Origin: Kofleriaceae bacterium
Lineage (GTDB): Bacteria > Myxococcota_A > Polyangia > Haliangiales > Haliangiaceae
Assembly (NCBI GenBank): GCA_046597055.1
Contig: JBKJLC010000131.1
Span: forward strand, 1 to 64,000
Direction of reading: 5' to 3'
Length of the DNA stretch: 64,000 nt
Part shown: positions 892 through 59,701 of the stretch, in pieces
Layout of the letters: every line of letters starts with the position of its first letter
How positions within the stretch are numbered: position 1 is the stretch's first letter
Position numbers and translations under genes: made by a program
The notes under the pieces: model-generated
The model's input: the letters and a program-made list of their open reading frames with translations, nothing else
Databases searched by the model: none
What the model was told of the DNA's origin: nothing

Positions 892-1818
892 TTACGGCAA
901 CCGGCGCAGCTGCTCGTTGATCGAGTCCAGATCGAACGCCTCGGCCTCGAACGGCTCACCCAGCCAGTCGAGCAAGCGCGTGCGCTCGGGGTGCTCCGGA
1001 TCCTGCATCGACTCGACCAGATCGGCGTAGCCGGGGCCGCCGCCACAGTCCTCCGGTGGGCAGGCCCGTGCGCCGTCCGTGCAGCGGGGCGTGCGGCCCA
1101 CGCCCTGCGGCGACCGGATCTCTTCCACCACGATCTCGTGCTGCCACGAGTCCCCGAAGTCATACTCGTAGCGGAAGCGGCTACCGACCTCGGGCGCGAA
1201 CGAGCGCAGCTTCACCTTGCCCTCGTCGCGCGCGTGATCGAGCCCGAACCGCGGGTCCGATGCCACGTCCTTGCCGTCCGCGCTGGCGAACTGGTGCAGG
1301 TGGCTGTCGGTCCATCCCATGGTGACCTGGATGATCCGGTGCAGCTTCTTGAGGCTCAGGTTTCCGGACGCGAGCACCGTGCGCCAGATCGGGGGCGTCA
1401 CGCCCTCGAGCGTGATCCGGAGCTGGAAGATCGGCATGCGCTGGGTGACCATGTCGCGGGCCGCCATCGTCGCGGAGGCCGGCTTGCGCTTGGCAGGGCG
1501 CGGGCCCGGCGAGGTTCGCCCTGCTTCCGGCTCGTCCAGATCACGGAGCTCGATCGTCGGGATCGCAAAGAGGTCGGCGGCGGGGACGAACACGAGCCGC
1601 ATGCCCCAGCCAGCATGACTGGTCAACATGCGACCCAGCTCGCGGAGCGACAGCCGCCGGCCGTCGATCTCGACGGTGGCCTCGCCGTCGGGACCACCGT
1701 CACCGACGATGCCCCGGATCACGTCGCCCCGAGGCACCCACGTGTCACCGGCAACGTCATACTCGAGCTGCGGGTAGCCGGGCGGCACTTCGAACGAGAC
1801 CCTCGGGACCTTCTTCAT
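892..1818 (-). CDS. pRiA4b ORF-3 (IS1096 passenger TnpR-like) family protein with an extra N-terminal DUF7713-like domain
   Basis: C-half has FQLRITL..PPIWR, LHRIIQ..MGWTDSHLHQF, YEYDFGDSWQH, GARACPPEDCGG; N-half has WVPRGDV..IDGRRLSLRELGRML..AGWGMRLVFVP; start taken at MKKVP. Confidence 0.85.
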   Translation of the reverse strand: MKKVPRVSFEVPPGYPQLEYDVAGDTWVPRGDVIRGIVGDGGPDGEATVEIDGRRLSLRELGRMLTSHAGWGMRLVFVPAADLFAIPTIELRDLDEPEAGRTSPGPRPAKRKPASATMAARDMVTQRMPIFQLRITLEGVTPPIWRTVLASGNLSLKKLHRIIQVTMGWTDSHLHQFASADGKDVASDPRFGLDHARDEGKVKLRSFAPEVGSRFRYEYDFGDSWQHEIVVEEIRSPQGVGRTPRCTDGARACPPEDCGGGPGYADLVESMQDPEHPERTRLLDWLGEPFEAEAFDLDSINEQLRRLP

Positions 1819-1954
1819 CACCTGGCGGCTGATACCACGGGCCCCCCGTGGATCACCCTGAACACGGCGACGCTGCGGGTGGTCCCGGCCCGTAGCAGCC
1901 GCGTCTGCCAAGGCGGTGAAATGAGACGGTTTCTGACCTCTCGGCCATCGCCTG

Positions 1955-4900
1955 GTGCCGCTCGCAGATAGTTCGCAACCGGGGCGGGGCGTTCGCGATA
2001 GTGATGGGGTGATTGACCGAGAGGGCCGCCGCAGCGGCACGACGTCGGGGCCGACGCGTGAGGTCGGCAGCCCGGCTCCCGGGAAGCGGTCGGTGACGGA
2101 GGGGCTGGTGCAGCGGCGGGCTGGGTCCGCGGCCGCCGGCGCGGCGGTGGTCAACCGGGTCGAGCCGGCTGGCGACGAGGCCTTTGCGGGGGAGCCGGCG
2201 CCGCCGATCTCGTTCATCGACCAGCTGCTGCAGCCGATCCAGCGCAAGGCGGCCGGTGGCGACGGGCCGGACGGCGACGTCTACGAACGGCACGCGGATG
2301 CGGTGGCCGACGCGGTGGTGCGCGGGGCGTCGGCCGCACCCCTGCTGGCGGCGGGCCCGACCGGCGCGGCCGGCGCGGTGCAGCGCAAGGCGCCCGGGGC
2401 GGGTGGTGCGCCGCCCAAGGAGCCCGCGGACGAGCTGCCGCCCGACCGCGACTATCAGCGGCTGGCCGGATCGATGAGCTTCCTGGTGCGGCGGTCGTGG
2501 CTCGAGTCGGAGCCCGAGCCCCGGGCCGGTGGGAACGGGACGATCACGCCGACGCGGACGCGCACGCTGCTCGACGAGCTCGTGCGCGCCGGCCTGCTCG
2601 GCTGGGCGCGGCCCGACCGGCTGACGCTGGCCGCCAACCGGCTGGTGCTGCTCGGGGCCGGCGCGGGCCAGGCGGTCGTGCGGGTCTCGATGGGCGCGGG
2701 GGTCTACAACATCATCGGGCTGCCACCGGGGACCGGCGCCATGGTGTCGCGACGGCAGGGCGGGCTCGAGCTGACCGTGCAGGCGGAGGGGCTCGAGGCC
2801 GACGGCGTGGAGGTCCCGCTCGACGCGACGCAGCTCGGCGATGCGCTCGACGCGGTGGAGCGGTTCACCGGGCTCGCCATCCCGACCGCGCGCCGGAGCG
2901 ACATCGTGATCAATGCGCGCGGGGGGACCGGCACGTTCAACCTGTTCCTGTCGGCCGCGAACATGGCGGACCTGGTCGGGGCCGACGCGTGGCGGGCGTA
3001 CCGCGAGCGCGACGGCGCCGCCGACGGGGCCCGCGGGGTCGGCAGCGCCGCAGCGTCGGTCAACGGCGACCTGACCGACCTGGAGCTCGGCCGCGCCAAG
3101 GACTGGCTGCGCACGCACCTGCCGGCCAGCAAGGACGAAGGCGTCCGGATCGACCGCGCGCTGCTCGAGCTGATCCTCACGATCGAGCGCAGCCCGCACA
3201 AGGCCCGCATCGTGGCCGCCCTGGCCGGCAGCGAGGGCGGCGCCGCGCTGACGGCGATCTCGTTCGAGTCGATCATGAACGAGGCCACGTTCGAGGCGGA
3301 GCGCGACGCCAGCGGCGTGACCACACCCCGGCCGACCGCCAACCTCGACCCGGTCCACGACACCCCGCTGCCCGCGCGCATCGTCCAGCACGCGTCGAAG
3401 ATCGCCGCCGGCGACACCGTGCCGTTCACGATCGAGGTCGACTGGCCGCCGGTGTTCATCGATCGCGCCGAGGGCAACGAGTACCGGTACCGCCAGTTCG
3501 TCACCCACGTCGACTGGGTGTTCGAGAAGTCGACGACGCACGAGAAGGCGTTCGCCCGCCAGCGCTACACCGGCGGGCACGACGCGCAGCACCACGTCTT
3601 CCAGCTCGCGCCCGGCGAGGACGAGGCCACGTGGATCGTCCACGCGTTCGTGCGCCACAGCCACTTCGCGCCGACCCACGAGCAGCGCGCGGTCGTGGTC
3701 CAGACCGAGGCGGCGCTGATGCGCGACCTGCGCGCGGATGCGACCCAGGGCATGGGGGTGCTCGACCAGGAGGGCGCGAAGAACTTCGACACCGGCGTGG
3801 TCAACAACCACGCAGGCTCGACGGCACAGGACCAGGGGCTCGAGCTGCACGGTCGGCTGCCGCGCGACTTCAAGCCGAAGAGCGACAGCCAGCGGGGCCA
3901 GGGCCGCGACCAGGAGATGGACCAGGTCCGCGCGGTGATCGCGCACCTGCGCGGCCGCGACATCCACAACGACGACGCGATCGAGGCGGCCGAGCGCTAC
4001 CTCGCCAACCTGGTGCGCGCCGATCGCGCGATCGAGGCCGACCTGCGCGCGACCTGGCAGTCGTTCGAGGTCCGCGGCACGCTGCGGTCGAGCCAGGCGG
4101 GCGTCGACGATGGCGCGCTGCAGCTCCACGGCGCGGTGCGCTGGGGCAGCGACGGGTCGGTCGAGGTGCAGCTGCGCGACCTGTCGCGTCGGTTCGGCGC
4201 CGAAGACCTCCGCACCGAGGGTAGCGGTGCCACGTTCGCGAGCGCGCTCGAGGGCGCGTTCGTGCCGCTGTGCAAGGCGTATCCGGCGGGCCGCCTGTTC
4301 GTCCTCGCCCAGGACCACCAGGGCATGAACCCGCTGCCGACCACGATCGGCTTCGAGCTGGACACCGGCACGATCGGCGAGGACATCAAGGCCAAGGTCT
4401 GGGATCCCGCCGTCAAGATGGCCGTGAACGTCGCCGGGATGGTCGCGACCCTGGCCGGGTTCGGCGCCATCGCGATCCCGCTGCTGGTCGTCTACAACGG
4501 CCTCGAGACGATCGATCAGATCCACGAGGAGTACCAGCGGGGCACGCTGACCTCGACCGACGTCGGGCTCGGGCTGGGCAGCCTCGTGCTCGACCTGCTG
4601 CCGGCGGCGGGCGGGATCAAGGCGGTCGGGTCGAGCGCGCGGTTGATGTACGCGCTCCACCTCGCCGACCTGGCGGGCGAGGCGCTGTACATGACCGCGG
4701 CGGCGCACCACGCGATCAACGACCTCGAGGAGCTGCACGTCGTGCAGCTGGTCGAGCGGTGGGAGCGCATGACCGAGCTGCAGCGCACGACCGATGCCGC
4801 GGACCCCGCGATGATCGCGATGCGGGCGGAGTTCGACGCGCAGGCCGAGAAGGTCAAGGAAGCCAGCACCGGGGTGCTGCTCGCGCTGGTTCGCGACCGC

Positions 4901-6283
4901 GCGATCTTCGTCGCGGCGAAGCACCTCGCGATGGGCGGGGGCGGGCCCAAGGTCGGGACGCCGTACAACGAGCTCCACCGGGACGGTCTGGTGGTCGCGA
5001 CGGTGGGCGGCGAGCCGTATTACGATCCGGCCCGCGGCCAGATCGTCGGCGACCCGAACCGGATGAAGGGCCCCCGGCTCGAAGGGCTGCAGGCCGAGCA
5101 CGCCAATCACATGCGGTTGATGGCGACCCAGCTGGCCGAGCGGCTCGGGCTACCGATCACGGATGTCGAGGTCATGGTCGGCGACCGGGTCGGGGTCACG
5201 ATCGGGACCTCGGGCAGCGTGACCGCGACCTACCAGCCGGGGATGCCGCCGGCGAAGGCCCAGGCGTCGTGGCAGGAGCTGTACGACGAGAAGATGGAGG
5301 CGCGTGGGGGCGGCGCGGGCGGGCCGGGGCGCGGGCGCCTGCACCTGCCGGCGGGCGAACCTGGCGACGGCCGGCCGCGGCGGAACCGAGAGCAGCCGCA
5401 TGGCGAGATCCATCGCGACCCGGGCGCGACGACGCCGGATGCGCCGCCGCTACCGACGCCCTACCGCCACGATGCGAAGCACGAGCTCGACTCGTCGACG
5501 GAGTTATCGATCGCGATCCGCCAGCAGTGGGCGGAGGTCGAGGTCCTGCTGTCGGCGGGGGCGCCGGGCAGCCGGGGCGTGCCGATCGGCCGGGTGCTCG
5601 AGACCGCAGCCGAGGGTCACCGGCTGTTCCAGCGGATCGTGCGCCGTGATCGGGGCGTGCTCGACGATCTGGGCATGCAGGGCGTGCCGAAGGACTTCGA
5701 TACGATGCAGCAGGAGTGGTCCCTGATCGAGACCAGCGATGGCTTCGTGATCGTGGCCGGCGACTACGGCAACGTGACCGCGCCCGGCCGGGTGCGCGTC
5801 CTGGCGCACGTCCACCCGGCGCCGCTGAAAGCCGGTTCCGAGGGTGCAACGACGACCACGGTCCTGGACGTGCGCCGTGGCGGGAAGAGCTACGATCAGA
5901 TCCTGCTCAGCGAAGCGAACGCGAAGCAGAGCGGGATCACGCCGTCAGCCGAGGACATCCACTCGATTTCGGACGGCGGCGCTCATGTGCTCTACACTCG
6001 TTATGTCAACGAGGGGAACGGCCTCATCGGCAATCCGCAGCCGGACGACCCGCGGCCTCGGATTGAGATTCATATGGCGGGCGTGCAGACGCGACGCTGG
6101 AATTCAGAGGCAAAGAAGTACGTGTACGAGGTCGACGTCCGCGTCAAAGACTCGGACGGCGAGATTCTGTGGGTCGGCAAAATGTTTGCGAACTGGAATG
6201 CTGTGAACAAGAAGGGCAACGTGCACTTCACCAGCCCAGACAGTCTCGCCGACCCGCTGGAAAAAGGATGGAAGGAACTGTGA
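1955..6283 (+). CDS. Large polymorphic-toxin-like protein: eCIS/DUF4157-like N-terminal motifs, hydrophobic middle segment, JAB-like C-terminal domain
   Basis: 1442-aa ORF with coding-like codon bias; [10 protein letters not shown], repeated (I/V)QR(K/R)[14 protein letters not shown]; hydrophobic helices near 4420-4630; EW..HVHP..PSAED tip; start uncertain (1955 or 2009). Confidence 0.7.
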
Positions 6284-7134
6284 CCTCCTTGCGCGATCCC
6301 GGCAGCTGGGGTGACGGGGCGTTTCGCGCTGACCGGTTCCTTCGGGGTCTCTGGGTGCGCGGACTGTTCGCGGGACATCGCACCTCCGACGGTCTGCGAG
6401 TCTTCATGGCACGATGTCCGCATCACATCAGCATTCTCGGCCGCCTCGACTACGAGGTGCCCGGCATCGCACCGCAACTCGGCGTCCACGGGCTCGACGG
6501 GCTCCCTGCCGGCGGCGCACCTTCCGTCTTGGTCGAGGTGCAGCCACGCGGCTCGTTTCTGCAGGCCTTTCGCGGGCAGGGGACCTCGGAGGACTGCGTC
6601 CGCATCGGTTGCGCGCTGGCGCGGGCGGTCGTGTCCGCCTGCGAGCGTTCAATCTTGATCGAGGGCCTCCGACCCGAGACCGTATTTCTGGAAGGAACGC
6701 CCGGTGCACTCGACCTCACGGGGGTGACGCCGCGATCTGCAGCTGTAATCGGACAAGGCCCCCTCTATGCCGAGGTGCCCGCGTTCGGGTGGGACCAGTT
6801 CGACCCCGAACAGTTTGCCGGGGAACAGCCGGAGCGCGCGGCCTACTCTGTCGCGCTGGTGCTCTGGGTGCTGCATCAGCCGGATCACCCGTACGGAAAC
6901 TACTATGGCGAGAGCGCCCACCGCGCGCGTGAAGGCATGCGCGATCCGTGGACCGGCCCGCCCGAGCTCGGCCGCATCCTCGAACCGATGCTCGCGTACC
7001 GGCTCGCAGACCGGCCGTCGCCGCAGTGGATGCTGGCCGAGCTGGAGGAGCTCGCCCGACAGTGGGGCATCGAGCTGCCACCCTTCCCACCAGCCTGGCC
7101 GGCGCCGCCGACCGAGACCGGCCCCTACCGCTGA
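6280..7134 (+). CDS. Degenerate Hanks-type kinase-fold protein (pseudokinase), putative immunity or partner protein
   Basis: GTGA overlap with the upstream stop; colinear kinase-subdomain echoes ([31 protein letters not shown]...RPS) without the catalytic residues. Confidence 0.7.
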
Positions 7135-7161
7135 CGCTCCGGCCGAAACGGGCATGCCGGG

Positions 7162-7395
7162 CTACCAGGGGATGGCAACCCGGCGGTACCGGAGGCCCGG
7201 CTCAAAACTGGTTCGCGGTCCACTCCATCGCATCGTCCGTCGCCGACACCGCGGCGGCGTGCGCTGGTCCTCGACTTCGGCGCCGAGGTACGCGCGCAGG
7301 TGCTTGCAGGTCCGCAGGTTGATGCCGCGGCGCTGGTTGCGCCAGGCCGGGCAGGTGCACGCACAGCGGCACCGGCACAGCGGGCTTTTCTCAGC
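7162..7395 (-). pseudogene. SWIM zinc-finger fragment without a standard start codon
   Basis: Translates CACTCPAWRNQRRGINLRTCKHL (CxC..CxH SWIM pattern), in frame directly after the stop of the 7396-7803 gene. Confidence 0.55.
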
Positions 7396-7803
7396 TCACG
7401 AGATCTCGACGCGCTTCGCCAGCTCGGCGTCGGACATCTTCGTGTAGTCGCCGTCGTGGCTTCCCACCACGCAGGCCGCGAGCGGCGCCTGGAGCTCGCC
7501 GCGGAGCTGGCCGAGGAACTTGGGCGGCGCCACCAGCACCAGGCGCTCGAAGCTGCCGCCCTGCCGCTTGGTCTCGAGCGCGCCGGCGACCAGCCGCGCG
7601 AAGTCGTGCTCGCCGCGGTCCTCGTGCGACTCGGCGCGGGTGGTCTTCTCCCGGCTGTGCTCGCGATCGAGCTGCTCCACGAGCTGCCAGGGCTGGGCCG
7701 GGCCCTCGGTCTGGAAGAGGCGGGCATGGCTGCCGTCGGCGACGATGATCCAGGTTTGTGTCATCGGCACCTGTAGCACGCGGATCTCGTCCATGCGGCC
7801 CAT
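7396..7803 (-). CDS. Host attachment protein / baeRF12-like family
   Basis: TWIIVADGSHARLF, FARLVA..L, FERLVLVAPPKFLGQLR..L, DYTK motifs; start may be 7803, 7794 or 7764. Confidence 0.85.
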   Translation of the reverse strand: MGRMDEIRVLQVPMTQTWIIVADGSHARLFQTEGPAQPWQLVEQLDREHSREKTTRAESHEDRGEHDFARLVAGALETKRQGGSFERLVLVAPPKFLGQLRGELQAPLAACVVGSHDGDYTKMSDAELAKRVEIS

Positions 7804-8013
7804 CGCCTCGCGCCGGCCGCCATGCGTCGCTACGAGCCCCCGCGCAGGGACACCGGAAGGTTGTGCGTGCGTCGCGCTCGGGGAACCAGGGCGCCGATGG
7901 CTTGCCAGGTCGTGCCGACGCTCGCCAGCCGCCCGGGCGGGCGGACACCAGGAACGGACGTCGAGTCTCCAGCTGCGACGTCGTCGCGAGAGCAAATCGG
8001 TGACGTTGCCGAT

Positions 8014-8029
8014 CGGCATGGCGGTTGCT
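8014..8029 (+). promoter_or_regulatory. Putative sigma-54 (-24/-12) promoter
   Basis: CGGCATGGCGGTTGCT: GG-N10-GC, upstream of the 8073 gene. Confidence 0.5.
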
Positions 8030-8072
8030 GAAGGAGTGAGCACCCGCAACCCTCTCCCCGCAGGTATCACCC

Positions 8073-16555: not shown

Positions 16556-19288
16556 CTATGGTGGGCCTGCGGGCGCGGTGATCTGCCCGAGGTCGAACCG
16601 GCGGCCGGCGACGAAGGTCAAGGCCCGGGTCGCCAGCGGCTTGTGGCCGGGCCCGGCGGCGTACACGCTCACCCGGCCCGCCCCCGCGTTGATCCGGCCG
16701 ATCTCGAAGCGGCCGGCGGCGTCGGTGACGATCCCGCCGCCCGACATCGCGGCCCCCATCACGCTGCCGTCGCTCCCGGCGACCACGCGCAGGCCGGGAC
16801 GCGGCGCGCCGGCGGCGTCGACCACCCCGCCGACCACGGACGCCCAGCGAACCAGCGCCAGATCGAGGCGGGTCTGGGTGGCCCCGACCTCGGTCGTGCC
16901 CTGGGCGGCACCGGCGTCGGCGACCACCTCGCAGGCGTAGGTGTACGGCGGCAGATGATCGAGGCGATACCCGCCGTCAGCCGCGCTCACCCGACGGCGG
17001 TACCGCTCGCCACCGCGGCCGCGGCAGGTGAGCTCGTACGCGGTGAGCGGCGTCCCGTCGAGCGTCACCGTGCCGACCAGCGCGCCGGCGCGCTCGAGCC
17101 GCAAGGTCACGGTCGCGCCGAGCGTCACCCCCGGCTGGTGGGCGCGGCCGCCGCCCCTGGTCGCCTCGGCGACGAGGAAGTAGGTGCCGCGGCGCAGCTG
17201 CGTGATCGCGAACCGGCCGTCGTCGTCGCAGAGGACGGTGGTCCCACGGTCGGTGCCCGAGGGGTCGGCGCCGAGATCGCTGTTGAGGGCGGTGACCCAC
17301 GCGTCACGGGCCGGGTTGCCATCCGGGTCGAGCACGAGGCCGCGGATGAGGCCGGCCCGCGCCTCGACGCGCAGGGTCACGCCGCGCCGCTCCTCGGCGG
17401 CCGCGAGGGTCACCTGGGCGGGGGCGTGCGCCGCCGGGTCGGCCCAGCCCAGCGGGACCTGCTCGTCCTCGACCACGAGGGCGAAGCCGCCGGCCTCGAG
17501 CCCACCGATCCGGAAGCTGCCGTCGGGCGCCGTGACCGTGGGGTGCGCGTCGGCCTCGGGCGGCCACCACGTCGTGCGGCGCGCGCCCGACGTGGCGGTG
17601 ACGTTCACGCCGGCGACCGCGGCGCCGGTCGCGTCGACGACCCGGCCCGCGATCGCGCCGCGGGCCTCGAGCGGCACCACCAGGCCGGCCTGATCGGTCG
17701 TGCTGACCACGACCCGCAAGGTGCCCACGCGCCCGTCGCGGGCCTCGGCGACCAGCGTGAACGCCCCCGGCGGCACGTTGCTCAGCGTGAACGCGCCGGT
17801 CGCGTCGCTGTCGCCGCGCACCAGGCTCGCGGCCCAGCCGAGGTAGCCGAAGCGGACCAACGACGCAGGCACCTCGAGCGCCAGCGTCGCGACCGCCCCC
17901 GGCTCGACCCGCCCGCGCAGGGTGACGCCGGCGTCGACCGTCAGGATCACGTCGGTGACGTCGTGATCGACGACCTCGATGATCTCGCCCCGGGTCGGCA
18001 TCGCGCCGCCGCCGGTCATGGACGTCATGTAGGAGCCCGGCGCCAGCCCGGTGATCTCGAAGTAGCCGTCGGCCCCGCTCGACGGCGCGACCGCGGTCTG
18101 GGTCCCGCCTTGCGAGCCCACCGACACCTCCACGCCGGGGACGCCCTCACCGGGCGCGCCGGCGCGCACCACGAAGCCCGCCACCGTGTAGGCGCGCTCG
18201 ACCAGGAGCTCGACGCCATCGAGCTCTTCGCCGATCCCGAGCTCGACCACGGTCGGTCCGCCCGACGCGTGACCGCGCGCGGTCGCCTCCAGCGAGACCG
18301 TGCCCGAGGCCACGCCGCGCAGCGTGAAGGTTCCATCGGCGGCGGTGACGGTCGCGCCCTCGTAGTCGCGGCGATGCCGGGCGCCGCCGCGGTGGCCCCC
18401 GCGGGCGATGACCTTGGCGCCGGCGACCGGCTCGCGGGTGTCGCGCGCGAGGACCTGGCCCCGGATGACCGCGCCGGGCGTGAGCGTGAAGTCGAGCGTG
18501 ACCGGGTGCTCGGCGAGCACGATCGAGTGGGTGGCCGCGGTGTACTCGGCGTGGGTCGCGGACCCGCGCCAGCTCCCGTCGGCCAGCCGCAGCCGGTAGC
18601 GACCGTCGTCGCCGGTGACCGTGACGTACCCGGGATCGTCGTCACGCCCACCCAGCTCGGCCGGGCTGAACCGCACCTGGGCACCGGCGATCCCGCCACC
18701 GCCGATGTCGCTGACCATGCCGCTGACCGGCGTGCCGCCGGCCTCGAGCAACAACTCGACCCCGGTCCGGGCGGTCCCGGCCACGAGCGCGACGTCGACC
18801 CGGGCCGGCAACAGGTCCGCGACCGACGCGGTCACGACGTACGCGCCGGGCGGCATCGACGGCGCCGACCACGCGCCGGTCGCGTCGGTGATGACGATCA
18901 GGGCGTCCTCGTACCGCTGGCCGGGGCCGCTCGAGCTGCCGTGGGATCGGCCGGTGATCGCGACCACCGCGCCGTCGACCGCGCGGCCGTCGGCGCGGCG
19001 CCGCACGTGGCCCGCCAGCGACGCCGGCTGCCGGTCGACCGCCGCGCCGACGCGGGCCGCGCGCTCGCGAGCGGCGAACGCGCCCGCGCTGCCGTCGGCG
19101 AGGCCGGGCGCGTGACCGGGCGCCGCCGTCACCGGCCGCGCCGGCGCGTCGGCGCCGAGCGGCCACCAGACCAGCCCGGCCAGGACGAGCGCGAGCAGCG
19201 CGAGCACGGCCGCTATCCGGACGCGGGTCCGGCTGCCCGCGCGCCGCGCTCGATCTGCTTCGCTCCCCGACCGGCCCGCCTCTGACAT
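16556..19288 (-). CDS. Membrane-anchored protein with multiple carboxypeptidase-regulatory-like (Cna-B type) domains
   Basis: N-terminal TM, then repeated GxVxD..G.PV.GA.V / TD..G.F.L..L..G.Y units. Confidence 0.85.
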   Translation of the reverse strand: MSEAGRSGSEADRARRAGSRTRVRIAAVLALLALVLAGLVWWPLGADAPARPVTAAPGHAPGLADGSAGAFAARERAARVGAAVDRQPASLAGHVRRRADGRAVDGAVVAITGRSHGSSSGPGQRYEDALIVITDATGAWSAPSMPPGAYVVTASVADLLPARVDVALVAGTARTGVELLLEAGGTPVSGMVSDIGGGGIAGAQVRFSPAELGGRDDDPGYVTVTGDDGRYRLRLADGSWRGSATHAEYTAATHSIVLAEHPVTLDFTLTPGAVIRGQVLARDTREPVAGAKVIARGGHRGGARHRRDYEGATVTAADGTFTLRGVASGTVSLEATARGHASGGPTVVELGIGEELDGVELLVERAYTVAGFVVRAGAPGEGVPGVEVSVGSQGGTQTAVAPSSGADGYFEITGLAPGSYMTSMTGGGAMPTRGEIIEVVDHDVTDVILTVDAGVTLRGRVEPGAVATLALEVPASLVRFGYLGWAASLVRGDSDATGAFTLSNVPPGAFTLVAEARDGRVGTLRVVVSTTDQAGLVVPLEARGAIAGRVVDATGAAVAGVNVTATSGARRTTWWPPEADAHPTVTAPDGSFRIGGLEAGGFALVVEDEQVPLGWADPAAHAPAQVTLAAAEERRGVTLRVEARAGLIRGLVLDPDGNPARDAWVTALNSDLGADPSGTDRGTTVLCDDDGRFAITQLRRGTYFLVAEATRGGGRAHQPGVTLGATVTLRLERAGALVGTVTLDGTPLTAYELTCRGRGGERYRRRVSAADGGYRLDHLPPYTYACEVVADAGAAQGTTEVGATQTRLDLALVRWASVVGGVVDAAGAPRPGLRVVAGSDGSVMGAAMSGGGIVTDAAGRFEIGRINAGAGRVSVYAAGPGHKPLATRALTFVAGRRFDLGQITAPAGPP

Positions 19289-19402
19289 GCAAGGAGTAGT
19301 ACGACCGCGGCGGCCCGATTGCGACCTGCGCTTGCTCACGAACGTAGATCACCGCCCGGTCGACCGACCGCAACCGAGGTGGGCCAGCCGTGTCCAGCGA
19401 GG

Positions 19403-19960
19403 ATGACCCACCTTCGCGCCGGCCGCTCGCGCGCCATTCTCGCTGGGGTGGCGCTCGCGGTGCTTCCGCTGGGCGCGCTCGGCGCGCTGCTGGGAGCGGG
19501 CGCCGCCGGCACTCTCGACTCCGACGATCTCGCGCCCGACCTCTTCGCCGTCACTGTCCAAGGCCAGATGGGCCCGGCGCCGTCATCACAGGTGTGCGGG
19601 GAACCAGCACCGATGGTCGTGGTCGTCGTGGACCACCAGGACGTGCAGATGCACGTCACACGGATCCTGATCGCGCCCGTCACCGTGCGTCGCACCGCGG
19701 ACGGTTGGGCGCGCGTCGCCGACCACCTCGCGGTGCTGAAGTCAGAGAGGGCCTTCGTCGAGCGCAATGACATCCTGATCGTGCCGGGGGCACCCGACCT
19801 GCCACTCCAGGACCTGGTCGCGGCGTTCGATGCCGCCGGCAGCGTTGGCTTCGATGGCTTCGGACTGGCCGTCAACTTCGCTGCCACCCACCTGCCACGG
19901 CGCGACCACCCCGACCTCGCGCACCGCCTGCGCTGGCTGCCAGCCGGCCGCCTGGATTGA
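19403..19960 (+). CDS. ExbD/TolR-like protein
   Basis: N-terminal TM; C-terminal ILIVP...LPLQDLVAAFDAA..VGF pattern. Confidence 0.5.
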   Translation: MTHLRAGRSRAILAGVALAVLPLGALGALLGAGAAGTLDSDDLAPDLFAVTVQGQMGPAPSSQVCGEPAPMVVVVVDHQDVQMHVTRILIAPVTVRRTADGWARVADHLAVLKSERAFVERNDILIVPGAPDLPLQDLVAAFDAAGSVGFDGFGLAVNFAATHLPRRDHPDLAHRLRWLPAGRLD

Positions 19961-20087
19961 CGCGGATCGAGTGGGGCGAGGACGAGGTGTGAATCAACCC
20001 CACGCACCAGACGCTCGTCCGCCGACCCGGAGTTGCGCGTGACGAGCCACGGATTGCCGTGGGTGGCCGGGATCCGCGGGGTGGCGA

Positions 20088-23000
20088 TTGTGGCAAGGTC
20101 CAGCGGAGTTGGCCGAGCGCGACGACCTCGATGTGACCGCGACCGCCGCGCCGACCTCGCACAGCGTCGGCACCGACACCACCGTCGGGCTCGAACCGGC
20201 CGTCCGGTACGACGACCTGCCCGACGACGGGTTGCCGGTGTACCGGGTCACCGGCGAGCTCGGTCGCGGCGGCATGGGCCACGTGATGCGCGCCGAGGAT
20301 CCCCGGCTGGGCCGCGAGGTCGCGGTCAAGCGGCTGATCTCGAGCGCCGCGGGGGCGCGGGCGCGGTTCGAGCGCGAGGCGCGCATCACCGCGCGGCTGC
20401 AACACCCGGCGATCGTGCCGATCTACGAGGCGGGCATCGACGCGAACGGGATTCCGTTCTACGCCATGCGGCTGATCACGGGTCGGACGCTGGCCGACGC
20501 GATCCGCGCGACCACGACGCTCGACGAGCGGCTCGGCCTGCTGCGCAACGTCATCGCGGTTGCCGAGGCGCTCGCCTACGCCCACAGCCGGCGCGTGATC
20601 CACCGCGACCTCAAGGCGTCGAACGTCGTGGTCGGGGAGTTCGGCGAGACGATCGTGATCGACTGGGGGCTGGCCAAGGACCTCGCCGCCAGCGATGCCC
20701 CCGAGCTGCCGACGGCGCCGACCGCCGAGCCGGCGGTCGCTGACGGCGAGCTGACCTGCGCGGGCGCCGTGATGGGCACCCCGGCGTACATGCCGCCCGA
20801 GCAGGCCGAGGGCGACCCGGTCGACGAGCGCGCCGACGTCTATGCGCTCGGGGTGATGCTGTACCACCTGCTGGCCGGCCAGATGCCGTACCGCGCCAAG
20901 ACGGCCGTCGACGTGCTGGCCGCGCTCCGCGCGGGCCCCCCCGAGCCGATCACGCAGCGGGTCGCCGGTGTCCCCAGCGATCTGGCAGCGATCATCGCGA
21001 AGGGGATGGCGCGGGCGCCGGCCGATCGCTATCCGACCGCGAAGGAGATGGCCCTCGAGCTCGAGCGGTTCGAGGCCGGCCAGCTGGTCGCGTCGCACGC
21101 CTACACCCGGCGCGAGCTGCTCGCGCGCTGGATCCACCGCCACCGCACCGCGGTGATCGTCGGACTGGTCGCGCTGGTCACCACCGGCGTCGGGGGCGCG
21201 ATGGCGATCGAAGAGATCGTCGAGGAGCGCCGTCATGCCGAGCACGAGCGCGACGTCGCGGTGCAGGCACGGTCCGCCGAGGTCGCGCGCGCCGACGAGG
21301 CGGTGCTGGCGCGCGCCCGAGATCTGGTCGACGAGCAGCCGCGCGGTGCGCTCGAGCAGCTGCGCGAGCTGTCCGCGGGCTCGCCGCAGTGGGCGCGCGC
21401 GCGCGCGATCGCGGCCGACGCGATGGCGCGCGGCGTGGTCCGCCGGGTCGGCCAGCTCGGCGACGCCGGCCTCCAGCTCGCGGTCGGCCGCGACGGGACG
21501 ACGCTCGCGACCTCCGCCGGCGAGCTGCTGTGGACCCGGCCTGGCGGCGGCCGGTGGATCACGCCGGCGACGAAGCCGGCGCTCGCCGCCGACGGATCGG
21601 CCTACGCCTGGCTCGACGGCGACCAGGCCGTGATCGGCGACGGCACCCGGGTGGCCGGCGAGCCGCCGTGGGGGCGGCACCGGGTCTCGGTGCCGGCCGG
21701 CACGACCGGGCTGGCGGTGACGCCCGGCGGCGCGGCGGTGTTCGCGATCACCGGCGATCGGGTCTACCGGATCGCGGTGCCATCGGGCACCCGCCGCGAT
21801 CTCGGCGCGGCGCCGGCCGGCTTCGGTCCCGCTGACGTCTCGAGCGCGATGCCCGGCTTCGTCGTCGCTGCGGCGAGCGCCCGCCGCGAGGGCAAGCTCA
21901 CCCGGGTCGCGCGGGCGTGGCGGTACGACGGAACCGAGCTGGTCGTGCCGCGCCTGTCGATGGCCGCCGAGGCACCGGGCGGTGCGCTGATCGCGCTCGT
22001 GATCGAGGACCGCGTGATCGTGCGCGACGTCGCCCGCGGGACCGACGCGACCGTCGCGAGCGGCCTGGAGATGGCCTCGCCCCGGATCGGCGCCGGCGGG
22101 CGCTGGCTGGCGTGGAGCCAGCTCAGCGATCCGGTGGTCCACCTGCGCGACCTGCAGAGGTCGAAGGACTTCGAGCTGCGCGGCCACACGGGCCTGTACA
22201 TCATCAGCGAGTTCTCGAGCGACGGCCGCTGGCTCGCGACCGCCGGAGGCGACGGCCATGTCCGGCTGTGGGATCTCGAGGTGCTCGCCGAGGAGCAGCC
22301 GAAGGGTGCGCTGCCACGCGCCGAGCCGACCCTGGTCGTCGACGCCAGCGACACCGTGCACGCGCTCGCGTTTGCCAGCGACGGTGCCCTGATCGCCCTG
22401 ACCGAAGGCGGCGCGGTGCTGCGCTGGGCGCTACCGACGGTGGTGTCGCGCCGCAACCGCGGTCCCTACCGATCCACCGACCTGACCTGGGAGGCCCACG
22501 TGCACGCCGGCGAGGCCGTCGTGATCCGCGTGGCCGATCGGCTGCGCCGCGCCTTGCCGGGCGTGACCGATCAGTTCGAGCCCGGCGATCCGATCACCCT
22601 CGCCTTCGCCGCGGATCCGCAGGTCGTGGCGGTGGCGGGACGGCGCGAGGTCATGCGCTGGCAACACGAGCGCGGCACGGTCGACCGCTTTCCGATCGAC
22701 GGCGACGTCATCGAGGTCGCGATCGCGCCCGCCGGTGACCAGCTGATCGCGCTGACTCGTGACGGGACCGCGTGGCTGGCCGGGGTCGGCCCGACCCGCA
22801 CGCTGGCGACCGGCTTCGGGATCACGGGCGCCCGTCCCCGGTTTGCCTCCGACGGACGCCACGTCGGGTTGCACGCACGTGCCGCGCGGCTGTTCCGGGT
22901 CGCGGACGGCGCCGAGCTGCCCGTGCCCGCCGGGAGGTACCTCGCGTTCACGCGCGACGGGCGCGGCGTCGCGATCGCCAGCGAGCTGCGCGTCGAGCGC

Positions 23001-23417
23001 TGCGAGCTCGCGTCGCTGCGGTGCGACCCACTCGACGACAGCCAGCATGCGGCGATCCTCACCTTCGGGCCGGCCGGCGAGCTGGCCGCGACCCGCCGCG
23101 GGCTGGAGGTGGTGATGTGGGCGGCTGACACGCGGACCCCGACCGTGGTCGGGCGTCACCGCGCCGGCATCAGCCGGATCGCCTTCTCGCCCGACGGGAA
23201 ATCCCTGGTGACCAGCGGCCAGGGCCCCGAGGTGCAGCTCATCGATGTCGCGACCACCGAGCATCGGCGGCTGTTCGTCCACGACGACCCGGTCGGAGCC
23301 CGCCACGACGGCGACCGGGTCTGGGTCACCGACTGGTTTCGCACCTACCAGCACCCCGACGACCTGCCGCGCGACGAGGCCGGGCTGCGCGCGCGGATCG
23401 AGCAGCTCCTCGAGTGA
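20088..23417 (+). CDS. Ser/Thr protein kinase with TM and WD40-like repeats
   Basis: LGRGGMG, VAVK, HRDLKASN, DWGLAK, GTPAYMPPEQ; GHT..FSSDGRWLATAGGDGHVRLWD. Confidence 0.92.
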   Translation: MWQGPAELAERDDLDVTATAAPTSHSVGTDTTVGLEPAVRYDDLPDDGLPVYRVTGELGRGGMGHVMRAEDPRLGREVAVKRLISSAAGARARFEREARITARLQHPAIVPIYEAGIDANGIPFYAMRLITGRTLADAIRATTTLDERLGLLRNVIAVAEALAYAHSRRVIHRDLKASNVVVGEFGETIVIDWGLAKDLAASDAPELPTAPTAEPAVADGELTCAGAVMGTPAYMPPEQAEGDPVDERADVYALGVMLYHLLAGQMPYRAKTAVDVLAALRAGPPEPITQRVAGVPSDLAAIIAKGMARAPADRYPTAKEMALELERFEAGQLVASHAYTRRELLARWIHRHRTAVIVGLVALVTTGVGGAMAIEEIVEERRHAEHERDVAVQARSAEVARADEAVLARARDLVDEQPRGALEQLRELSAGSPQWARARAIAADAMARGVVRRVGQLGDAGLQLAVGRDGTTLATSAGELLWTRPGGGRWITPATKPALAADGSAYAWLDGDQAVIGDGTRVAGEPPWGRHRVSVPAGTTGLAVTPGGAAVFAITGDRVYRIAVPSGTRRDLGAAPAGFGPADVSSAMPGFVVAAASARREGKLTRVARAWRYDGTELVVPRLSMAAEAPGGALIALVIEDRVIVRDVARGTDATVASGLEMASPRIGAGGRWLAWSQLSDPVVHLRDLQRSKDFELRGHTGLYIISEFSSDGRWLATAGGDGHVRLWDLEVLAEEQPKGALPRAEPTLVVDASDTVHALAFASDGALIALTEGGAVLRWALPTVVSRRNRGPYRSTDLTWEAHVHAGEAVVIRVADRLRRALPGVTDQFEPGDPITLAFAADPQVVAVAGRREVMRWQHERGTVDRFPIDGDVIEVAIAPAGDQLIALTRDGTAWLAGVGPTRTLATGFGITGARPRFASDGRHVGLHARAARLFRVADGAELPVPAGRYLAFTRDGRGVAIASELRVERCELASLRCDPLDDSQHAAILTFGPAGELAATRRGLEVVMWAADTRTPTVVGRHRAGISRIAFSPDGKSLVTSGQGPEVQLIDVATTEHRRLFVHDDPVGARHDGDRVWVTDWFRTYQHPDDLPRDEAGLRARIEQLLE

Positions 23418-25153: not shown

Positions 25154-25261
25154 GCCGAGCTCGGTCCGTCGTGATGGCAGCCGGCGCCCTTCGCCAGGGC
25201 CTGGCCACCGAGCTTTTCATGCAGGCGCGCACCAAGCCGACCCAGCGCTAAGCTTCTCCGA

Positions 25262-25290
25262 TTGCCGATAGTAGCTCGCTACGCTACAAG
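25262..25290 (+). promoter_or_regulatory. Putative sigma-70 promoter with palindrome in spacer (candidate BlaI operator)
   Basis: TTGCCG-N17-TACAAG, with GTG 7 nt downstream; GTAGC-TC-GCTAC at 25271-25282. Confidence 0.45.
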
Positions 25291-25296
25291 TGCTCG

Positions 25297-25689
25297 GTGC
25301 GAACTTTCGCGGACGCCTCGCAGGTCCTTGGCGAGCTCGAGCAGCGCCTGATGGACCTGCTGTGGCAGGAGCACCCGCTGTCGGTCCGCGACGTGAAGGC
25401 CCGGCTCGGTCGGGTCAAGCTCGCGTACACCACGGTGATGACGACGCTCGACCGCCTCTACAAGAAGGGGCTGCTCGCGCGGACCAAGAACGGCCTCGCC
25501 TTCGTCTACCAGCCGGCCATCGATCGCGCCGAGTACCAGCGGCGCGTGGTGCAGGCGGCGCTCGTTCCCTTGCTGGCGCAGGGGCCGGGGCCGGTGTTGG
25601 CGGCGTTCATCGATGTGGCGGCTGGCGCCGACGACGAGAACCTGACGCGCCTCGAGACCCTGATCGCGGCCCACCGGAAGAAGCGGTGA
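25297..25689 (+). CDS. BlaI/MecI/CopY family transcriptional repressor
   Basis: LGELEQRLMDLLW, LAYTTVMTTLDRLYKKGLL.R. Confidence 0.93.
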   Translation: MRTFADASQVLGELEQRLMDLLWQEHPLSVRDVKARLGRVKLAYTTVMTTLDRLYKKGLLARTKNGLAFVYQPAIDRAEYQRRVVQAALVPLLAQGPGPVLAAFIDVAAGADDENLTRLETLIAAHRKKR

Positions 25690-25693
25690 CGCC

Positions 25694-26638
25694 ATGATGG
25701 GCTTCGCGCTGGTGTTCGTGCTCGTCGTGACGGCCCTGTCGTTGTGCATGGCGATCGCGGTGCGCTGCGCCGGACCCTCGCTACGGCGGCGCGGTGCGCA
25801 GGTCGAACGCCAGGCGGTAGCACTCGCCGCCGGGCTCCCGGTGGCCCTGGCCACCGCGCTGGTGGCGACCCTCGTGGTCGCGGGCTACCTGGGCGATGAT
25901 CATTGCGGCGTCCACGATCACCACGCGCACCTGTGTCTCGCGCACGGGGACGCGTGGGGACGGCAGCCGTGGGTGGTCGTCGTGCTGGCGGCGGCGGGCG
26001 CGACCGTGCTGGCTCGTCTCGCCGTCCTCATCGGCCAGCATGGTCGGGCGGCGAGCGCCGTCGCTCGGCTGCGCGAGGTCGGCTCGACGACGGGAGACGT
26101 GACCCTGGTCGACTCGGCCCGCGCGTTCTGCTTCGTCGCCGGGCTCTGGCGACCCCGGATCTACGCCTCGACCGCCGCATGGAGCGGGCTCACCGACGAC
26201 GAGCGGGCCGCCATGCTCGCCCACGAGCGCGGGCACATCACGTACCACGATCTGACGCGGCGCCTGGGTCTCGAGCTCCTGCTCGCCCTCTCGGCGCCCT
26301 TCGTGACCGGCATCCTCATGCCGCGCTGGGCGCGCGCGACCGAGCGCCTCCGCGATGGCGATGCGGCGCGGGCCGTGGGCGACCCGGAGCCGGTGGCGCG
26401 CGCGATGGTCCATCTGTGTCGGCTCGAGCTCGCGGCGACCGCACCGGGGTTCCGGTTTGCCGCCAGCGGGGACGACCTGTCCGACCGCGTCGAGGCGCTG
26501 CTCGCGAACGAATCCAGTGGCCGCCGTGCCGCCCGGGTCCTCGCGCTGGCGCTGGTCGGCGCCGCGGTCCTGGTGGCCATGGCCGTCGCGGTCCAGGCCG
26601 ATCCGCTGCATCACGCCCTCGAGACCCTGCTCGGTTGA
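25694..26638 (+). CDS. M56 family membrane metallopeptidase (BlaR1-like, no penicillin-binding domain)
   Basis: FVAGLWRPRIY.S, MLAHERGH (HExxH), ERL.D; His/Cys loop DDHCGVHDHHAHLCLAH. Confidence 0.88.
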   Translation: MMGFALVFVLVVTALSLCMAIAVRCAGPSLRRRGAQVERQAVALAAGLPVALATALVATLVVAGYLGDDHCGVHDHHAHLCLAHGDAWGRQPWVVVVLAAAGATVLARLAVLIGQHGRAASAVARLREVGSTTGDVTLVDSARAFCFVAGLWRPRIYASTAAWSGLTDDERAAMLAHERGHITYHDLTRRLGLELLLALSAPFVTGILMPRWARATERLRDGDAARAVGDPEPVARAMVHLCRLELAATAPGFRFAASGDDLSDRVEALLANESSGRRAARVLALALVGAAVLVAMAVAVQADPLHHALETLLG

Positions 26639-26669
26639 GCAGGCTCGGCATGTTCGCGAAGGAGATCCC

Positions 26670-27920: not shown

Positions 27921-27928
27921 GGTTCACC

Positions 27929-29539: not shown

Positions 29540-29542
29540 GGC

Positions 29543-32668
<3,126 letters not shown>

Positions 32669-34380: not shown

Positions 34381-34470
34381 CGGTTTGCTCGCGTGCCCGG
34401 GCTTGCCTGGGCTCACCCGATCGAACACCTCGTGGGCACCGCTTGAACGGCGGCGCCGCACCGGAGGACC

Positions 34471-36959: not shown

Positions 36960-36968
36960 GAGCCGACC

Positions 36969-39900: not shown

Positions 39901-40142
39901 CGCTCGGCTTCATCCCGATGGCGGTCGCGTCCGGCGCGGGCGCCGAGGTGCAGAAGCCGCTGGCCACGGTGGTCATCGGTGGGCTGGTGACGTCGACCCT
40001 GCTGACGTTGCTGGTCCTCCCCACCATCTACGCCTGGCTCATGGCTCGGGCGGATCCCCCCCGTCCACTCGGATCGCTGGCAGCCCACCCGCCCGTGACG
40101 CCGTCCGAGCCGGTCGAGACCGAACCGACGGAGGTGCCGTGA
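36969..40142 (+). CDS. czcA: CzcA heavy-metal RND permease
   Basis: [49 protein letters not shown]. Confidence 0.95.
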
Positions 40143-44289: not shown

Positions 44290-44292
44290 CCG

Positions 44293-45639: not shown

Positions 45640-45646
45640 GCGCGTC

Positions 45647-48711
<3,065 letters not shown>

Positions 48712-48715
<4 letters not shown>

Positions 48716-57796: not shown

Positions 57797-59413
<1,617 letters not shown>

Positions 59414-59701
59414 TGTCTTGCGGGCCTTCCTGTCGGCCAGGCCGCGCCGCGGTTGCGCGAAGAATTTCAGTAATTTATTTCGGTAACTTGCGGCGCACAT
59501 GCGGAGTGCGCCGGGCCTCGGCCAGGCGCGGGGCCGCCCCGCAGGCGGGGTTGGCGCGGGCCCGCGACCGAGTCCCTCGCCCTCCGCGCCGCGCACGTTT
59601 CATGACGCGGCCGCCGCCCCCACCACTACGGCGCCGGCAGCGGCGCATTCTTCACCTACGACTGAAGAACGTGCCGCTGGGCGACGCGCGTGCGGCGCGC
59701 T

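Follow-up and report, generated by a model that had tools for sequence, protein, structure and literature searches.

A candidate toxin-tip and pseudokinase immunity cassette of a polymorphic toxin system in a Kofleriaceae bacterium

We analyzed a stretch of 64,000 nucleotides from a Kofleriaceae bacterium (contig JBKJLC010000131.1; hereafter the window), in which two overlapping genes lie on the forward strand. The upstream one (1955..6283) is a large modular toxin-like gene that, according to the ORF list and its translation, encodes 1442 aa from GTG 1955. The database gene call (P0030) begins at 2108, 51 codons after this GTG, and a conserved leader motif (PAPGK..VQRR) lies upstream of the database start. 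The downstream gene (6280..7134), which encodes a pseudokinase, yields 284 aa from GTG 6280 or 288 aa from an alternative start, ATG 6268, which has GAAAAAGG just 5' of it and is the start chosen in the database (P0003). The initial annotation had placed the start of the downstream gene on a GTGA overlap with the stop of the large gene, and this is what the junction sequence GGAACTGTGACC (6275-6286) contains: within the overlap (6280..6283), the stop codon of the 1442-aa frame is TGA at 6281-6283, and the 284-aa frame begins with GTG at 6280-6282. The two genes overlap whichever of the two starts is used. Coding is backed by the GC content at codon positions in both frames. Over the whole large gene GC3 amounts to 0.93, against 0.81 for its last ~600 nt (within the tip) and 0.79 for the pseudokinase gene; the values of tip and pseudokinase, both below that of the whole gene, fit the signature of a cassette.

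The complete 1442-aa protein matched nothing in sequence searches of Pfam, NCBIfam and the PDB. Near its N-terminus, aa 76-149 match the N-termini of relatives bearing an eCIS_core domain (tblastn and BLASTP), and we refer to this region (2072..2389) as a leader remnant. In the relatives, the eCIS_core/DUF4157 domain (HExxH) sits between the leader motifs; Pfam detects it in the proteins of loci L001, L002 and L003 but not in the window protein. A conserved body follows (aa 156-1121, 2420..5317), with a hydrophobic stretch around aa 820-890. Over this region only, the protein is 67% identical to P0130, 38% to P0131 and 33% to P0132, and the C-termini of these three proteins do not align with the tip. 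P0130 can be aligned as far as aa 1121, and homology of the tip begins at about aa 1185; the junction between body and tip is a linker rich in Gly, Pro and Arg (5318..5491). The tip is in turn 34-40% identical to the C-termini of four proteins with other bodies (967-1725 codons, measured as stop-to-stop frames). Pfam finds eCIS_core in three of these four, and the domain is also present in 11 of 20 further tip-bearing representative proteins. The modularity of polymorphic toxins is seen both ways, with one body carrying differing C-termini and one tip placed on differing bodies. The exchange of C-termini bears out the earlier description of the large gene as polymorphic toxin-like, with the qualification that the protein lacks the eCIS_core/DUF4157 domain of most of its relatives.

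The C-terminal tip domain (aa 1180-1442, 5492..6280) is defined by its relatives (100 representative proteins at E <= 1e-3), by an AF2 model (pLDDT 92.5, pTM 0.90) and by invariant residues. These residues are E1254 (5714-5716), H1285 and H1287 in an HVHP motif (5807-5818), S1331 and D1334 in a PSAED motif (5942-5956) and H1344 (5984-5986), or E75, H106, H108, S152, D155 and H165 in tip numbering; together with a G they are invariant in all 38 unique genome copies. They include a JAMM-type E/HxH/SxxD motif, in which 43 residues separate HxH from SxxD, far more than in 22 aligned Prok-JAB sequences, and the model shows a five-strand beta extension after the core of the tip. A VIA-align comparison of the model gave 5ld9_A as best match (Z 4.5, rmsd 3.9, 98 aligned residues), with JAMM/MPN structures in 10 of the 50 rows listed. 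A second comparison gave 6fnn_B (Z 4.3, rmsd 4.1, 109 aligned), with JAMM/MPN structures in 11 of the best 15 rows. Z was below 5 throughout. Foldseek returned nothing at E <= 1e-3 for the model, the tip profile had no match in the PDB, and 23 members of the tip alignment scanned against Pfam at E <= 10 matched no family, including JAB, Toxin-JAB and DUF4329. Using hhalign against the 22 Prok-JAB sequences, we obtained a probability of 4.8%, i.e., no profile similarity to known JAB families. The model suggests, at best weakly, a JAB/MPN-type fold.

The tip-like domain is terminal in 13 of the 38 unique genome copies and internal in the other 25, where it is directly followed by variable extensions at the C-terminus (170-671 aa). 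Among them are CdiA_C, WHH/colicin-DNase and a weak Zeta-like match, and ART and Fic domains occur in the representative proteins. The initial picture is corrected in that the tip is a distinct E/HxH/SxxD domain that in many relatives lies internally, before classic toxin domains.

The product of the downstream gene adopts a kinase fold. An AF2 model (pLDDT 87.0, pTM 0.87) gave at least 500 Foldseek matches in the PDB at E <= 0.001 (top E 1.8e-11, TM about 0.6-0.66), and all of the matches listed are protein kinase or pseudokinase domains. A profile built from 27 family members aligned end to end with PknA (6b2q_A; E 6.1e-9, profile positions 10-260) and likewise with the MLKL pseudokinase (E 8.3e-9). 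Both the sequence profile and the structure search agree with the initial annotation, which had recognized the subdomains of a Hanks kinase along this product. The window's own protein matched no Pfam or NCBIfam family, immunity models included. Among the family members, 12 of 27 matched Pfam Pkinase at E <= 1 (best 1.6e-5), and the only other Pfam matches of the family were PK_Tyr_Ser-Thr and two single matches at chance level.

The residues needed for catalysis are missing, as had also been noted from the sequence for the VAIK Lys, the HRD Asp and DFG. RVFMA occupies the VAIK position, GLRPET (6664-6681) stands in place of HRDLKPEN, and a stretch at 6715-6735 replaces the DFG region, with L-T-G (in DLTG) at the DFG position, so that the VAIK Lys, the HRD Asp, the catalytic-loop Asn and the DFG Asp are all absent; the protein is therefore a pseudokinase and not a kinase. 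The same loss is found across the family. We aligned 76 sequences, comprising 69 family members (27 database relatives and 42 from genomes) and 7 canonical kinases. None of the 69 members has the HRD/N/DFG set; Asp is missing from the HRD position in 68 of them and Asn is present in none, and the family consensus at the HRDLKPEN position is G-[LIV]-R-P-E-[TL]. The 7 lowest scorers of the 76 (at most 68 bits) are the canonical HRDLKPxN kinases, and family members without HRD score at least 61 bits. In the organism's own genome, the family profile gave 303 bits for the 6280-7134 gene versus at most 45 bits for 72 weaker kinase-like matches. Surface motifs are strongly conserved, namely GPPELGR (6955-6975) and, in the terminal subfamily, a C-terminal LARxWxVExPPFPPPGL tail, whose Pro-rich part lies at 7078-7110 in the window. 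One subfamily carries an extra conserved N-terminal domain.

The initial annotation had raised the question of whether homologous pseudokinases consistently follow toxin tips, and the genomic data answer it positively for terminal tips. On public contigs, a tip lies directly upstream in all 8 loci that have a full pseudokinase and upstream DNA; outside this count are three loci cut by contig ends and one with only an 86-aa remnant. Across 401 genomes of the class, a pseudokinase follows 12 of 12 terminal tips (a count that includes the window's locus), on the same strand and with a gap of at most about 90 nt. A family pseudokinase also occurs near 20 of the 25 internal copies, in 18 cases 0.4-3 kb downstream and in two just upstream. 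The remaining five internal-tip loci have none, and three of these have at least 5 kb of downstream DNA. Overall, tip and pseudokinase are linked in 40 of the 45 loci with enough sequence to judge.

Pseudokinases are also found away from tips. In eleven loci with a pseudokinase, the surrounding 5-7 kb are free of a tip, as far as the contig reaches (only 3.2 kb in L130). For instance, the pseudokinases of L128 and L129 lie ~1 kb downstream of poly-immunity proteins on the same strand, one of which combines Imm22, SUKH-1, DMP19 and ankyrin and the other DMP19 and ankyrin. L121 has two pseudokinase genes in tandem, and in L064 the pseudokinase is kept beside a mere remnant of a tip. In a relative tipped with WHH/colicin-DNase, the toxin gene is followed by a SUKH-1 immunity gene (E 3.5e-17) and then by the pseudokinase. 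For another terminal toxin family, L104 and L107 keep the partner as a gene of its own, whereas in L103 it is fused to a pseudokinase (39.5% identity over 301 aa).

From these sequence comparisons, we consider that the two genes probably make up a toxin-tip/immunity cassette belonging to a polymorphic toxin system. A toxin/pseudokinase immunity pair was what the initial annotation had proposed, and the comparative evidence supports it: tip and partner move together, the body occurs with other C-termini, GC3 is lower in both halves, and orphan pseudokinases lie by poly-immunity genes. The large protein would consist of a leader remnant of the eCIS_core/DUF4157 class, a body of ~970 aa, a low-complexity linker and an exchangeable tip of ~250 aa. 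The tip would harm recipient bacteria as a metal-dependent hydrolase, probably of the peptidase or isopeptidase type. The coupled downstream gene would give rise to a cytoplasmic protein with a Hanks-kinase fold, unable to phosphorylate, that would bind the tip and block the putative toxin in the producer. We infer the toxicity and metal catalysis of the tip, its physical binding by the pseudokinase and an export route. The size of the pseudokinase counts against an immunity function, because a complete and well conserved kinase fold of 288 aa is large for an immunity protein and may retain ligand binding. Also counting against this reading are the weak JAB/MPN assignment of the tip, the five internal copies that lack a pseudokinase, the loss of eCIS_core from the large protein and a window free of secretion genes.

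The internal copies must also be considered, because a tip that precedes other domains could be a processing or entry module and not a toxin. The tip would then be a JAB-like processing or release peptidase, or serve in entry, the pseudokinase would be a dedicated inhibitor or regulator that guards against premature cleavage in the producer, and the terminal form in the window would be a leftover C-terminus. This would account for the 25 of 38 copies placed directly before variable extensions, for catalytic residues that are invariant in the internal copies as well, and for the pseudokinase accompanying 20 of these 25 despite a separate candidate immunity gene after the terminal toxin. We nevertheless think it unlikely, since the 13 strictly terminal copies have nothing to release, and since the orphan pseudokinases, two of them beside poly-immunity proteins, are better explained by protection from incoming toxins. 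The pseudokinase could also be a partner without an immunity role. It might act as a chaperone, a loading adaptor or an activator, or be co-delivered as a cargo effector docking on the tip. Cargo effectors encoded after specialized carrier proteins offer a parallel, and strict adjacency, translational coupling, the conserved surface motifs, the full and confidently folded kinase domain (AF2) and the subfamily with an additional N-terminal domain are all compatible with such a partner. Orphan and tandem copies far from any tip count against it, as do the poly-immunity proteins adjoining two orphans, the fusion to the partner of another toxin and the copy kept by a decayed tip; moreover, neither a signal peptide nor a secretion-related domain was detected. 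We regard this explanation as unlikely.

The genome is rich in Hanks kinases (72 weaker profile matches, and two Hanks kinases in the window itself), so the small gene might encode an ordinary, degenerate signalling pseudokinase, as a myxobacterial genome with many kinases could contain, and lie beside the toxin-like gene by chance. This is extremely improbable: the linkage in 40 of 45 judgeable loci already contradicts it, and a sharp divide sets the family apart from canonical kinases (at least 61 bits without HRD versus at most 68 bits with HRDLKPxN). Within the toxin-tip/immunity reading, a more specific and quite unlikely variant has a kinase-fold protein of rival bacteria (e.g., one of the Hanks kinases abundant in myxobacteria) as the target of the JAMM-like tip. 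The pseudokinase would then be a target-derived decoy, a copy of a kinase without its catalysis that binds the toxin cleft, with the conserved Pro-rich tail (PPFPPPGL) perhaps acting as a pseudo-substrate, and a signalling enzyme would have given rise to the immunity protein through target mimicry.

Polymorphic toxin systems are of a known kind, while both halves of the cassette are undescribed families. Systems with an N-terminal PVC-metallopeptidase/DUF4157 (Pfam eCIS_core) domain are treated in passages of Zhang et al. 2012 (PMC3482391) and Geller et al. 2021 (PMC8213781). As characterized in these passages, they share with the window locus a large protein whose N-terminus is conserved, followed by a long linker or body and by exchangeable C-terminal domains, and a partner gene immediately 3'. 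Relatives of the window protein carry eCIS_core, and its own genome has eCIS_core matches. Unlike this class, the window protein itself has lost eCIS_core and lies outside any eCIS operon, and its tip and partner match no Pfam toxin or immunity family. Of the marks of an eCIS-associated toxin given in the relevant passages of Geller et al. 2021 (PMC8213781), eCIS operon adjacency or DUF4157, the window protein shows neither; of the N-terminal trafficking domain (PVC-metallopeptidase/eCIS_core) in the relevant passages on polymorphic toxin systems (PMC3482391), it retains only the flanking leader motifs. The JAB-domain toxins described in the main text of Zhang et al. 2012 (PMC3482391), Tox-JAB-1 (with immunity protein Imm65) and Tox-JAB-2 (partly DUF4329), resemble the tip in being C-terminal domains of toxin proteins with a JAMM-type E/HxH/SxxD motif and a gene in the immunity position. 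The tip differs from both in having no Pfam JAB, Toxin-JAB or DUF4329 match (23 members scanned), in its 43-residue gap and in its five-strand beta extension, and its partner has a kinase fold in place of the Imm65 that this text assigns to Tox-JAB-1.

With MLKL, TYK2 JH2 and PknA/PknB, the pseudokinase shares the kinase fold and recognizable subdomains I-XI. It differs from them as a stand-alone bacterial protein of 288 aa with G-[LIV]-R-P-E-[TL] for HRDLKPEN and without the Lys, the Asn and the DFG Asp, and in a genomic role tied to a toxin domain and not to signalling. SidJ of Legionella is a kinase-fold metaeffector that inactivates the SidE toxin-like effectors; it is an active glutamylase injected into host cells. 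The pseudokinase would resemble SidJ as a kinase-fold protein that neutralizes a toxin-like enzyme of the same organism, but it conserves no catalytic residues and would presumably neutralize by binding. None of the papers that came up in our literature searches describes a kinase-fold immunity protein. In the main text of Zhang et al. 2012 (PMC3482391), the word 'kinase' occurs nine times, each time for a toxin or for the target of one. If confirmed, the cassette would bring in a bacterial pseudokinase that stands alone and has a defined task outside signalling, and its two proteins would make a clean system in which to study the inhibition of an enzyme by a dead kinase scaffold. It would also draw attention to a domain found together with CdiA_C, WHH, ART and Fic toxin domains in very large proteins from environmental bacteria.

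A scan of 40 ORFs found no eCIS structural genes and no secretion genes in the window. The organism's own genome contains 30 matches to eCIS_core, and another of its contigs (C74) carries an eCIS-like locus.

The large gene runs for 1442 codons from a GTG at 1955 to a TGA at 6281-6283 (+), as read from the ORF list and its translation, and the small gene, of 284 codons, begins at a GTG at 6280 (+). The stop of one and the start of the other share the nucleotides GTGA, which bears out the overlap described in the initial annotation. An alternative start for the small gene, an ATG at 6268 (+) preceded by GAAAAAGG, is used in a database gene call (P0003, 288 aa). Both frames look coding by codon-position GC in a window with a G+C content of 72%. 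GC3 reaches 0.93 over the large gene as a whole but falls to 0.81 across that gene's final ~600 nt, and the small gene has 0.79; the tip and the small gene therefore have a common composition, unlike that of the body. A promoter and terminator scan of 1500-7700 gave no signal exceeding shuffled sequences. The pair is flanked by a divergent PRiA4_ORF3/DUF7713 gene (892-2247, -) and, directly after the pseudokinase gene, by a convergent Host_attach/baeRF12 (bacterial eRF1-like family 12) gene (7396-8070, -); neither is related to secretion. As listed, the divergent gene runs into the 5' part of the large gene (1955-2108, +), and its real start is probably further inside. In the database (P0030, 1391 aa) the large gene is called from 2108. 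Starting there would remove a PAPGK..LVQRR motif that relatives keep, which places the true start probably upstream of 2072.

On its own, the window pseudokinase had no match in Pfam, NCBIfam or PDB. Searching 5.8 billion proteins at E <= 0.01 gave a family of 27 proteins of ~290 aa, the window protein included. Used as a profile against PDB, the family alignment matched PknA (6b2q_A, E 6.1e-9, profile positions 10-260) and the MLKL pseudokinase (E 8.3e-9), and 12 of the 27 members reached Pfam Pkinase at E <= 1. The AF2 model of the window protein (pLDDT 87.0, pTM 0.87) had at least 500 Foldseek matches in PDB at E <= 0.001 (top E 1.8e-11), and among the matches listed every one is a protein kinase or pseudokinase domain (for instance TYK2 JH2, TMq 0.65). 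The product of 6280-7134 has a kinase fold, as the initial annotation had proposed to check by structure search, and the Hanks subdomain map drawn there from the sequence is correct. Its active site is dead. Alignment places RVFMA at the VAIK position, GLRPET at HRDLKPEN and DLTG at DFG, in agreement with the earlier reading that the VAIK Lys, the HRD Asp and DFG had been lost.

The same holds across the family. We aligned 76 sequences, namely the 27 family proteins and 49 unique genome matches at >= 55 bits, and the HRD/N/DFG set is absent in 69 of them. The Asp at the HRD position is missing in 68 of these 69, the exception being one locus (L094) with an Asp in LLDIRPEVM. The other seven sequences are canonical HRDLKPxN kinases, all at <= 68 bits. 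When the genome of the window was searched with the pseudokinase profile, the window gene came out at 303 bits, against <= 45 bits for the 72 weaker kinase-like matches. The window also encodes two canonical Hanks kinases (20043-23417, +, and 57797-59599, -), one of them fused to WD40 repeats. In the family alignment, the terminal subfamily keeps a conserved C-terminal tail, LARxWxVExPPFPPPGL, a candidate contact element; the window protein has its version of this tail at 7078-7110. Members of another subfamily (loci L109-L113, L116, L117 and L129) have an additional N-terminal domain of ~170-260 aa, conserved at 37-91% identity among loci. The N-terminal part had no Pfam match in the two pseudokinase frames scanned (L103 and L129).

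The pseudokinase is linked to the tip and behaves with it as a cassette. On public contigs, the tip lies directly upstream in 8 of 8 loci with a full pseudokinase and upstream DNA (L004 and L018 among them may come from one organism); three further loci are truncated at contig ends. Locus L005 was not accepted as a case of a tip-less pseudokinase, since homology is confined to its final 86 aa, and it counts as a remnant. We then consider 401 sampled genomes of the class, with six candidates scored per genome for the tip and pseudokinase profiles. The tip profile gave 38 matches in 21 genomes, and 30 of the 38 were given loci. In 12 of these 30 the tip is terminal (<= 40 aa after the domain), and in all 12 the pseudokinase comes next, on the same strand, with a gap of <= ~90 nt. 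Homologous pseudokinases consistently follow the terminal tips, a point the initial annotation had singled out for checking, with the proviso that these counts are drawn from related genomes and are not independent of each other. Two of the genomes, G343 and G373, are unpublished, and no claim depends on either. Two loci are decay states of the cassette: at L050/L083 (G005:C1) the tip is intact but the pseudokinase after it is broken into two frames, and at L064/L081 (G126:C25) the pseudokinase is intact while ~90 aa remain of the tip in front of it.

The remaining tip matches are internal, with 170-671 residues after the domain. Clustering 18 of these C-terminal extensions gave several unrelated clusters, and the 17 scanned against Pfam included matches to CdiA_C (E 3.3e-15), WHH/colicin-DNase (E 5.7e-15) and, weakly, a Zeta-like domain; in representative proteins, ART or Fic stands behind the tip-like domain. 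Compared with kinases, the extensions gave nothing better than E 0.5, and a fused tip-pseudokinase was therefore rejected. A search for longer, fused pseudokinases returned only two ordinary kinases, which is weak evidence given that it scored just 8000 candidates. In the same class, the pseudokinase profile matched in 38 of the 401 genomes at E <= 1e-15. A family pseudokinase is present in 17 of 17 internal regions chosen because both profiles had matched on one contig, and in 3 of 8 further internal loci. This makes 20 of 25 (a count that leaves out the G343 locus): in 18 the pseudokinase lies downstream, at 0.4-3 kb, and in 2 it comes shortly before the large gene. Two of the five internal loci without a pseudokinase have <1.2 kb of downstream sequence. 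In L118 (G317:C30) and L119 (G059:C1) the pseudokinase gene directly precedes the internal-tip large gene instead of following it. All pseudokinases of these tip-linked loci have G-[LIV]-R-P-E at the HRD place.

When 1.84 billion representative proteins were scanned in full with HMMER, 100 matched the tip at E <= 1e-3. In the best ~25 matches the domain is C-terminal, and in weaker ones it is internal, in proteins of up to 4699 aa. The columns E75, G90, H106, H108, S152, D155 and H165 are invariant in 38 of 38 unique genome copies (one of them from G343). E75, H106/H108 and S152/D155 make up the JAMM residue set, which is also visible in an alignment of 22 Prok-JAB sequences drawn from the genome of the window and those of 18 relatives. 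The residues are the same, but the HxH to SxxD gap is 43 residues in the tip. The AF2 model of the tip (pLDDT 92.5, pTM 0.90) had no Foldseek match in PDB at E <= 1e-3. With VIA-align the best match was 5ld9_A (Z 4.5, rmsd 3.9, 98 aligned), with JAMM/MPN in 10 of the 50 best rows, and in a second look 6fnn_B (Z 4.3, rmsd 4.1, 109 aligned), with MPN/JAB in 11 of the best 15 rows, including Cap3 and BubCD; all Z were <5, a level that can reflect a common arrangement. Structural support for a JAMM/MPN likeness of the modelled tip is weak but consistent. There was no match in Pfam or NCBIfam, none in PDB by sequence or by profile, none in Pfam for 23 family members at E <= 10, and no usable match in ESM Atlas; hhalign of the tip family against the 22 Prok-JAB sequences gave a probability of 4.8%. 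With the profile tests negative, the tip is described as JAB/MPN-like on its motif and topology, outside known JAB families. Membership of a known JAB family was rejected on the Pfam, PDB and hhalign results.

The whole large protein has no sequence match in Pfam, NCBIfam or PDB. Its body (aa 156-1121) is 67%, 38% and 33% identical to the database proteins P0130, P0131 and P0132, respectively; these alignments end at the Gly/Pro-rich linker, and the C-termini beyond it are unlike the tip. Conversely, at four loci (L001-L004; 967-1725 codons as stop-to-stop frames) proteins with a different body end in a region 34-40% identical to the last ~250 aa of the window protein, its tip. Pfam eCIS_core is present in P0131 and P0132 and in three of these four proteins. 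The window protein retains in its leader the motifs that flank eCIS_core in relatives, including PAPGK..VQRR, and the domain itself is absent. For DUF4157 proteins, Geller et al. 2021 (PMC8213781) describe an N-terminal DUF4157, a linker sometimes >1000 aa and a C-terminal toxin, exactly the architecture seen here. The genome has 30 eCIS_core/DUF4157 matches, and so a large arsenal of such proteins. The window ORF scan found no eCIS structural genes; elsewhere in the genome, contig C74 carries an eCIS-like locus with a Pvc16_N tail terminator and two sheath genes (17954-23250, -). Export may go through this system, although the window protein has lost eCIS_core. A hydrophobic Gly/Ala-rich stretch (4412-4630, +; aa ~820-890) is conserved in body relatives and may be a membrane-insertion segment. 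The L001, L002 and L004 proteins have other stretches that are comparably hydrophobic.

How might the two products act together? The tip would be a metal-dependent hydrolase harmful to recipient bacteria, and the cytoplasmic pseudokinase would bind and block it in the producer. The immunity pair proposed in the initial annotation fits the comparative patterns. At eleven loci the pseudokinase stands with no tip inside a range of 5-7 kb (the L130 contig allows only 3.2 kb). One of these copies (L120), at 270 bits, follows an EF-G-like gene, and L121 holds two copies in tandem. Upstream of two such orphans (L128 and L129), at ~1 kb and on the same strand, are multi-domain proteins composed of Imm22/DUF4284, SUKH-1, DMP19 and ankyrin domains, which match the poly-immunity proteins described by Zhang et al. 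2012 (PMC3482391). At L109, a WHH-tipped relative is followed by a SUKH-1 gene (E 3.5e-17) and then by the pseudokinase, thus two toxin-protein domains and then two partner genes. One terminal-extension family occurs in L051, L052 and L056; the gene that follows it stands apart from the pseudokinase gene in L107 and L104, and at L103 is fused to the pseudokinase N-terminus (39.5% identity over 301 aa). The orphans, their immunity neighbours, the gene order and the fusion point towards the behaviour of an immunity gene, and suit a chaperone or co-effector less well. The tip-like domain is internal in most relatives, so it could instead be a processing or entry module, with the pseudokinase as its inhibitor.

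In the literature searched at listing and abstract level we found no pseudokinase immunity protein or antitoxin; the word 'pseudokinase' turned up there for YukC/EssB, a component of T7SSb, and for Legionella effectors. Zhang et al. 2012 (PMC3482391) use 'kinase' nine times in the main text, each time for a toxin or the target of one, and the supplementary files of that paper may list further families. Judged by its sequences, the cassette is of the polymorphic toxin type, with a putative toxin tip and a putative kinase-fold immunity protein that both belong to undescribed families.

Elsewhere in the window there are RND efflux sets at 25252-32668 and 34447-40142 (+), each with OEP, HlyD and AcrB-type genes, and another at 44290-48715 (+) in which the frames scanned showed just HlyD and AcrB-type genes. 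A BlaI/BlaR-like pair (Penicillinase_R and Peptidase_M56) precedes the set at 25252-32668.
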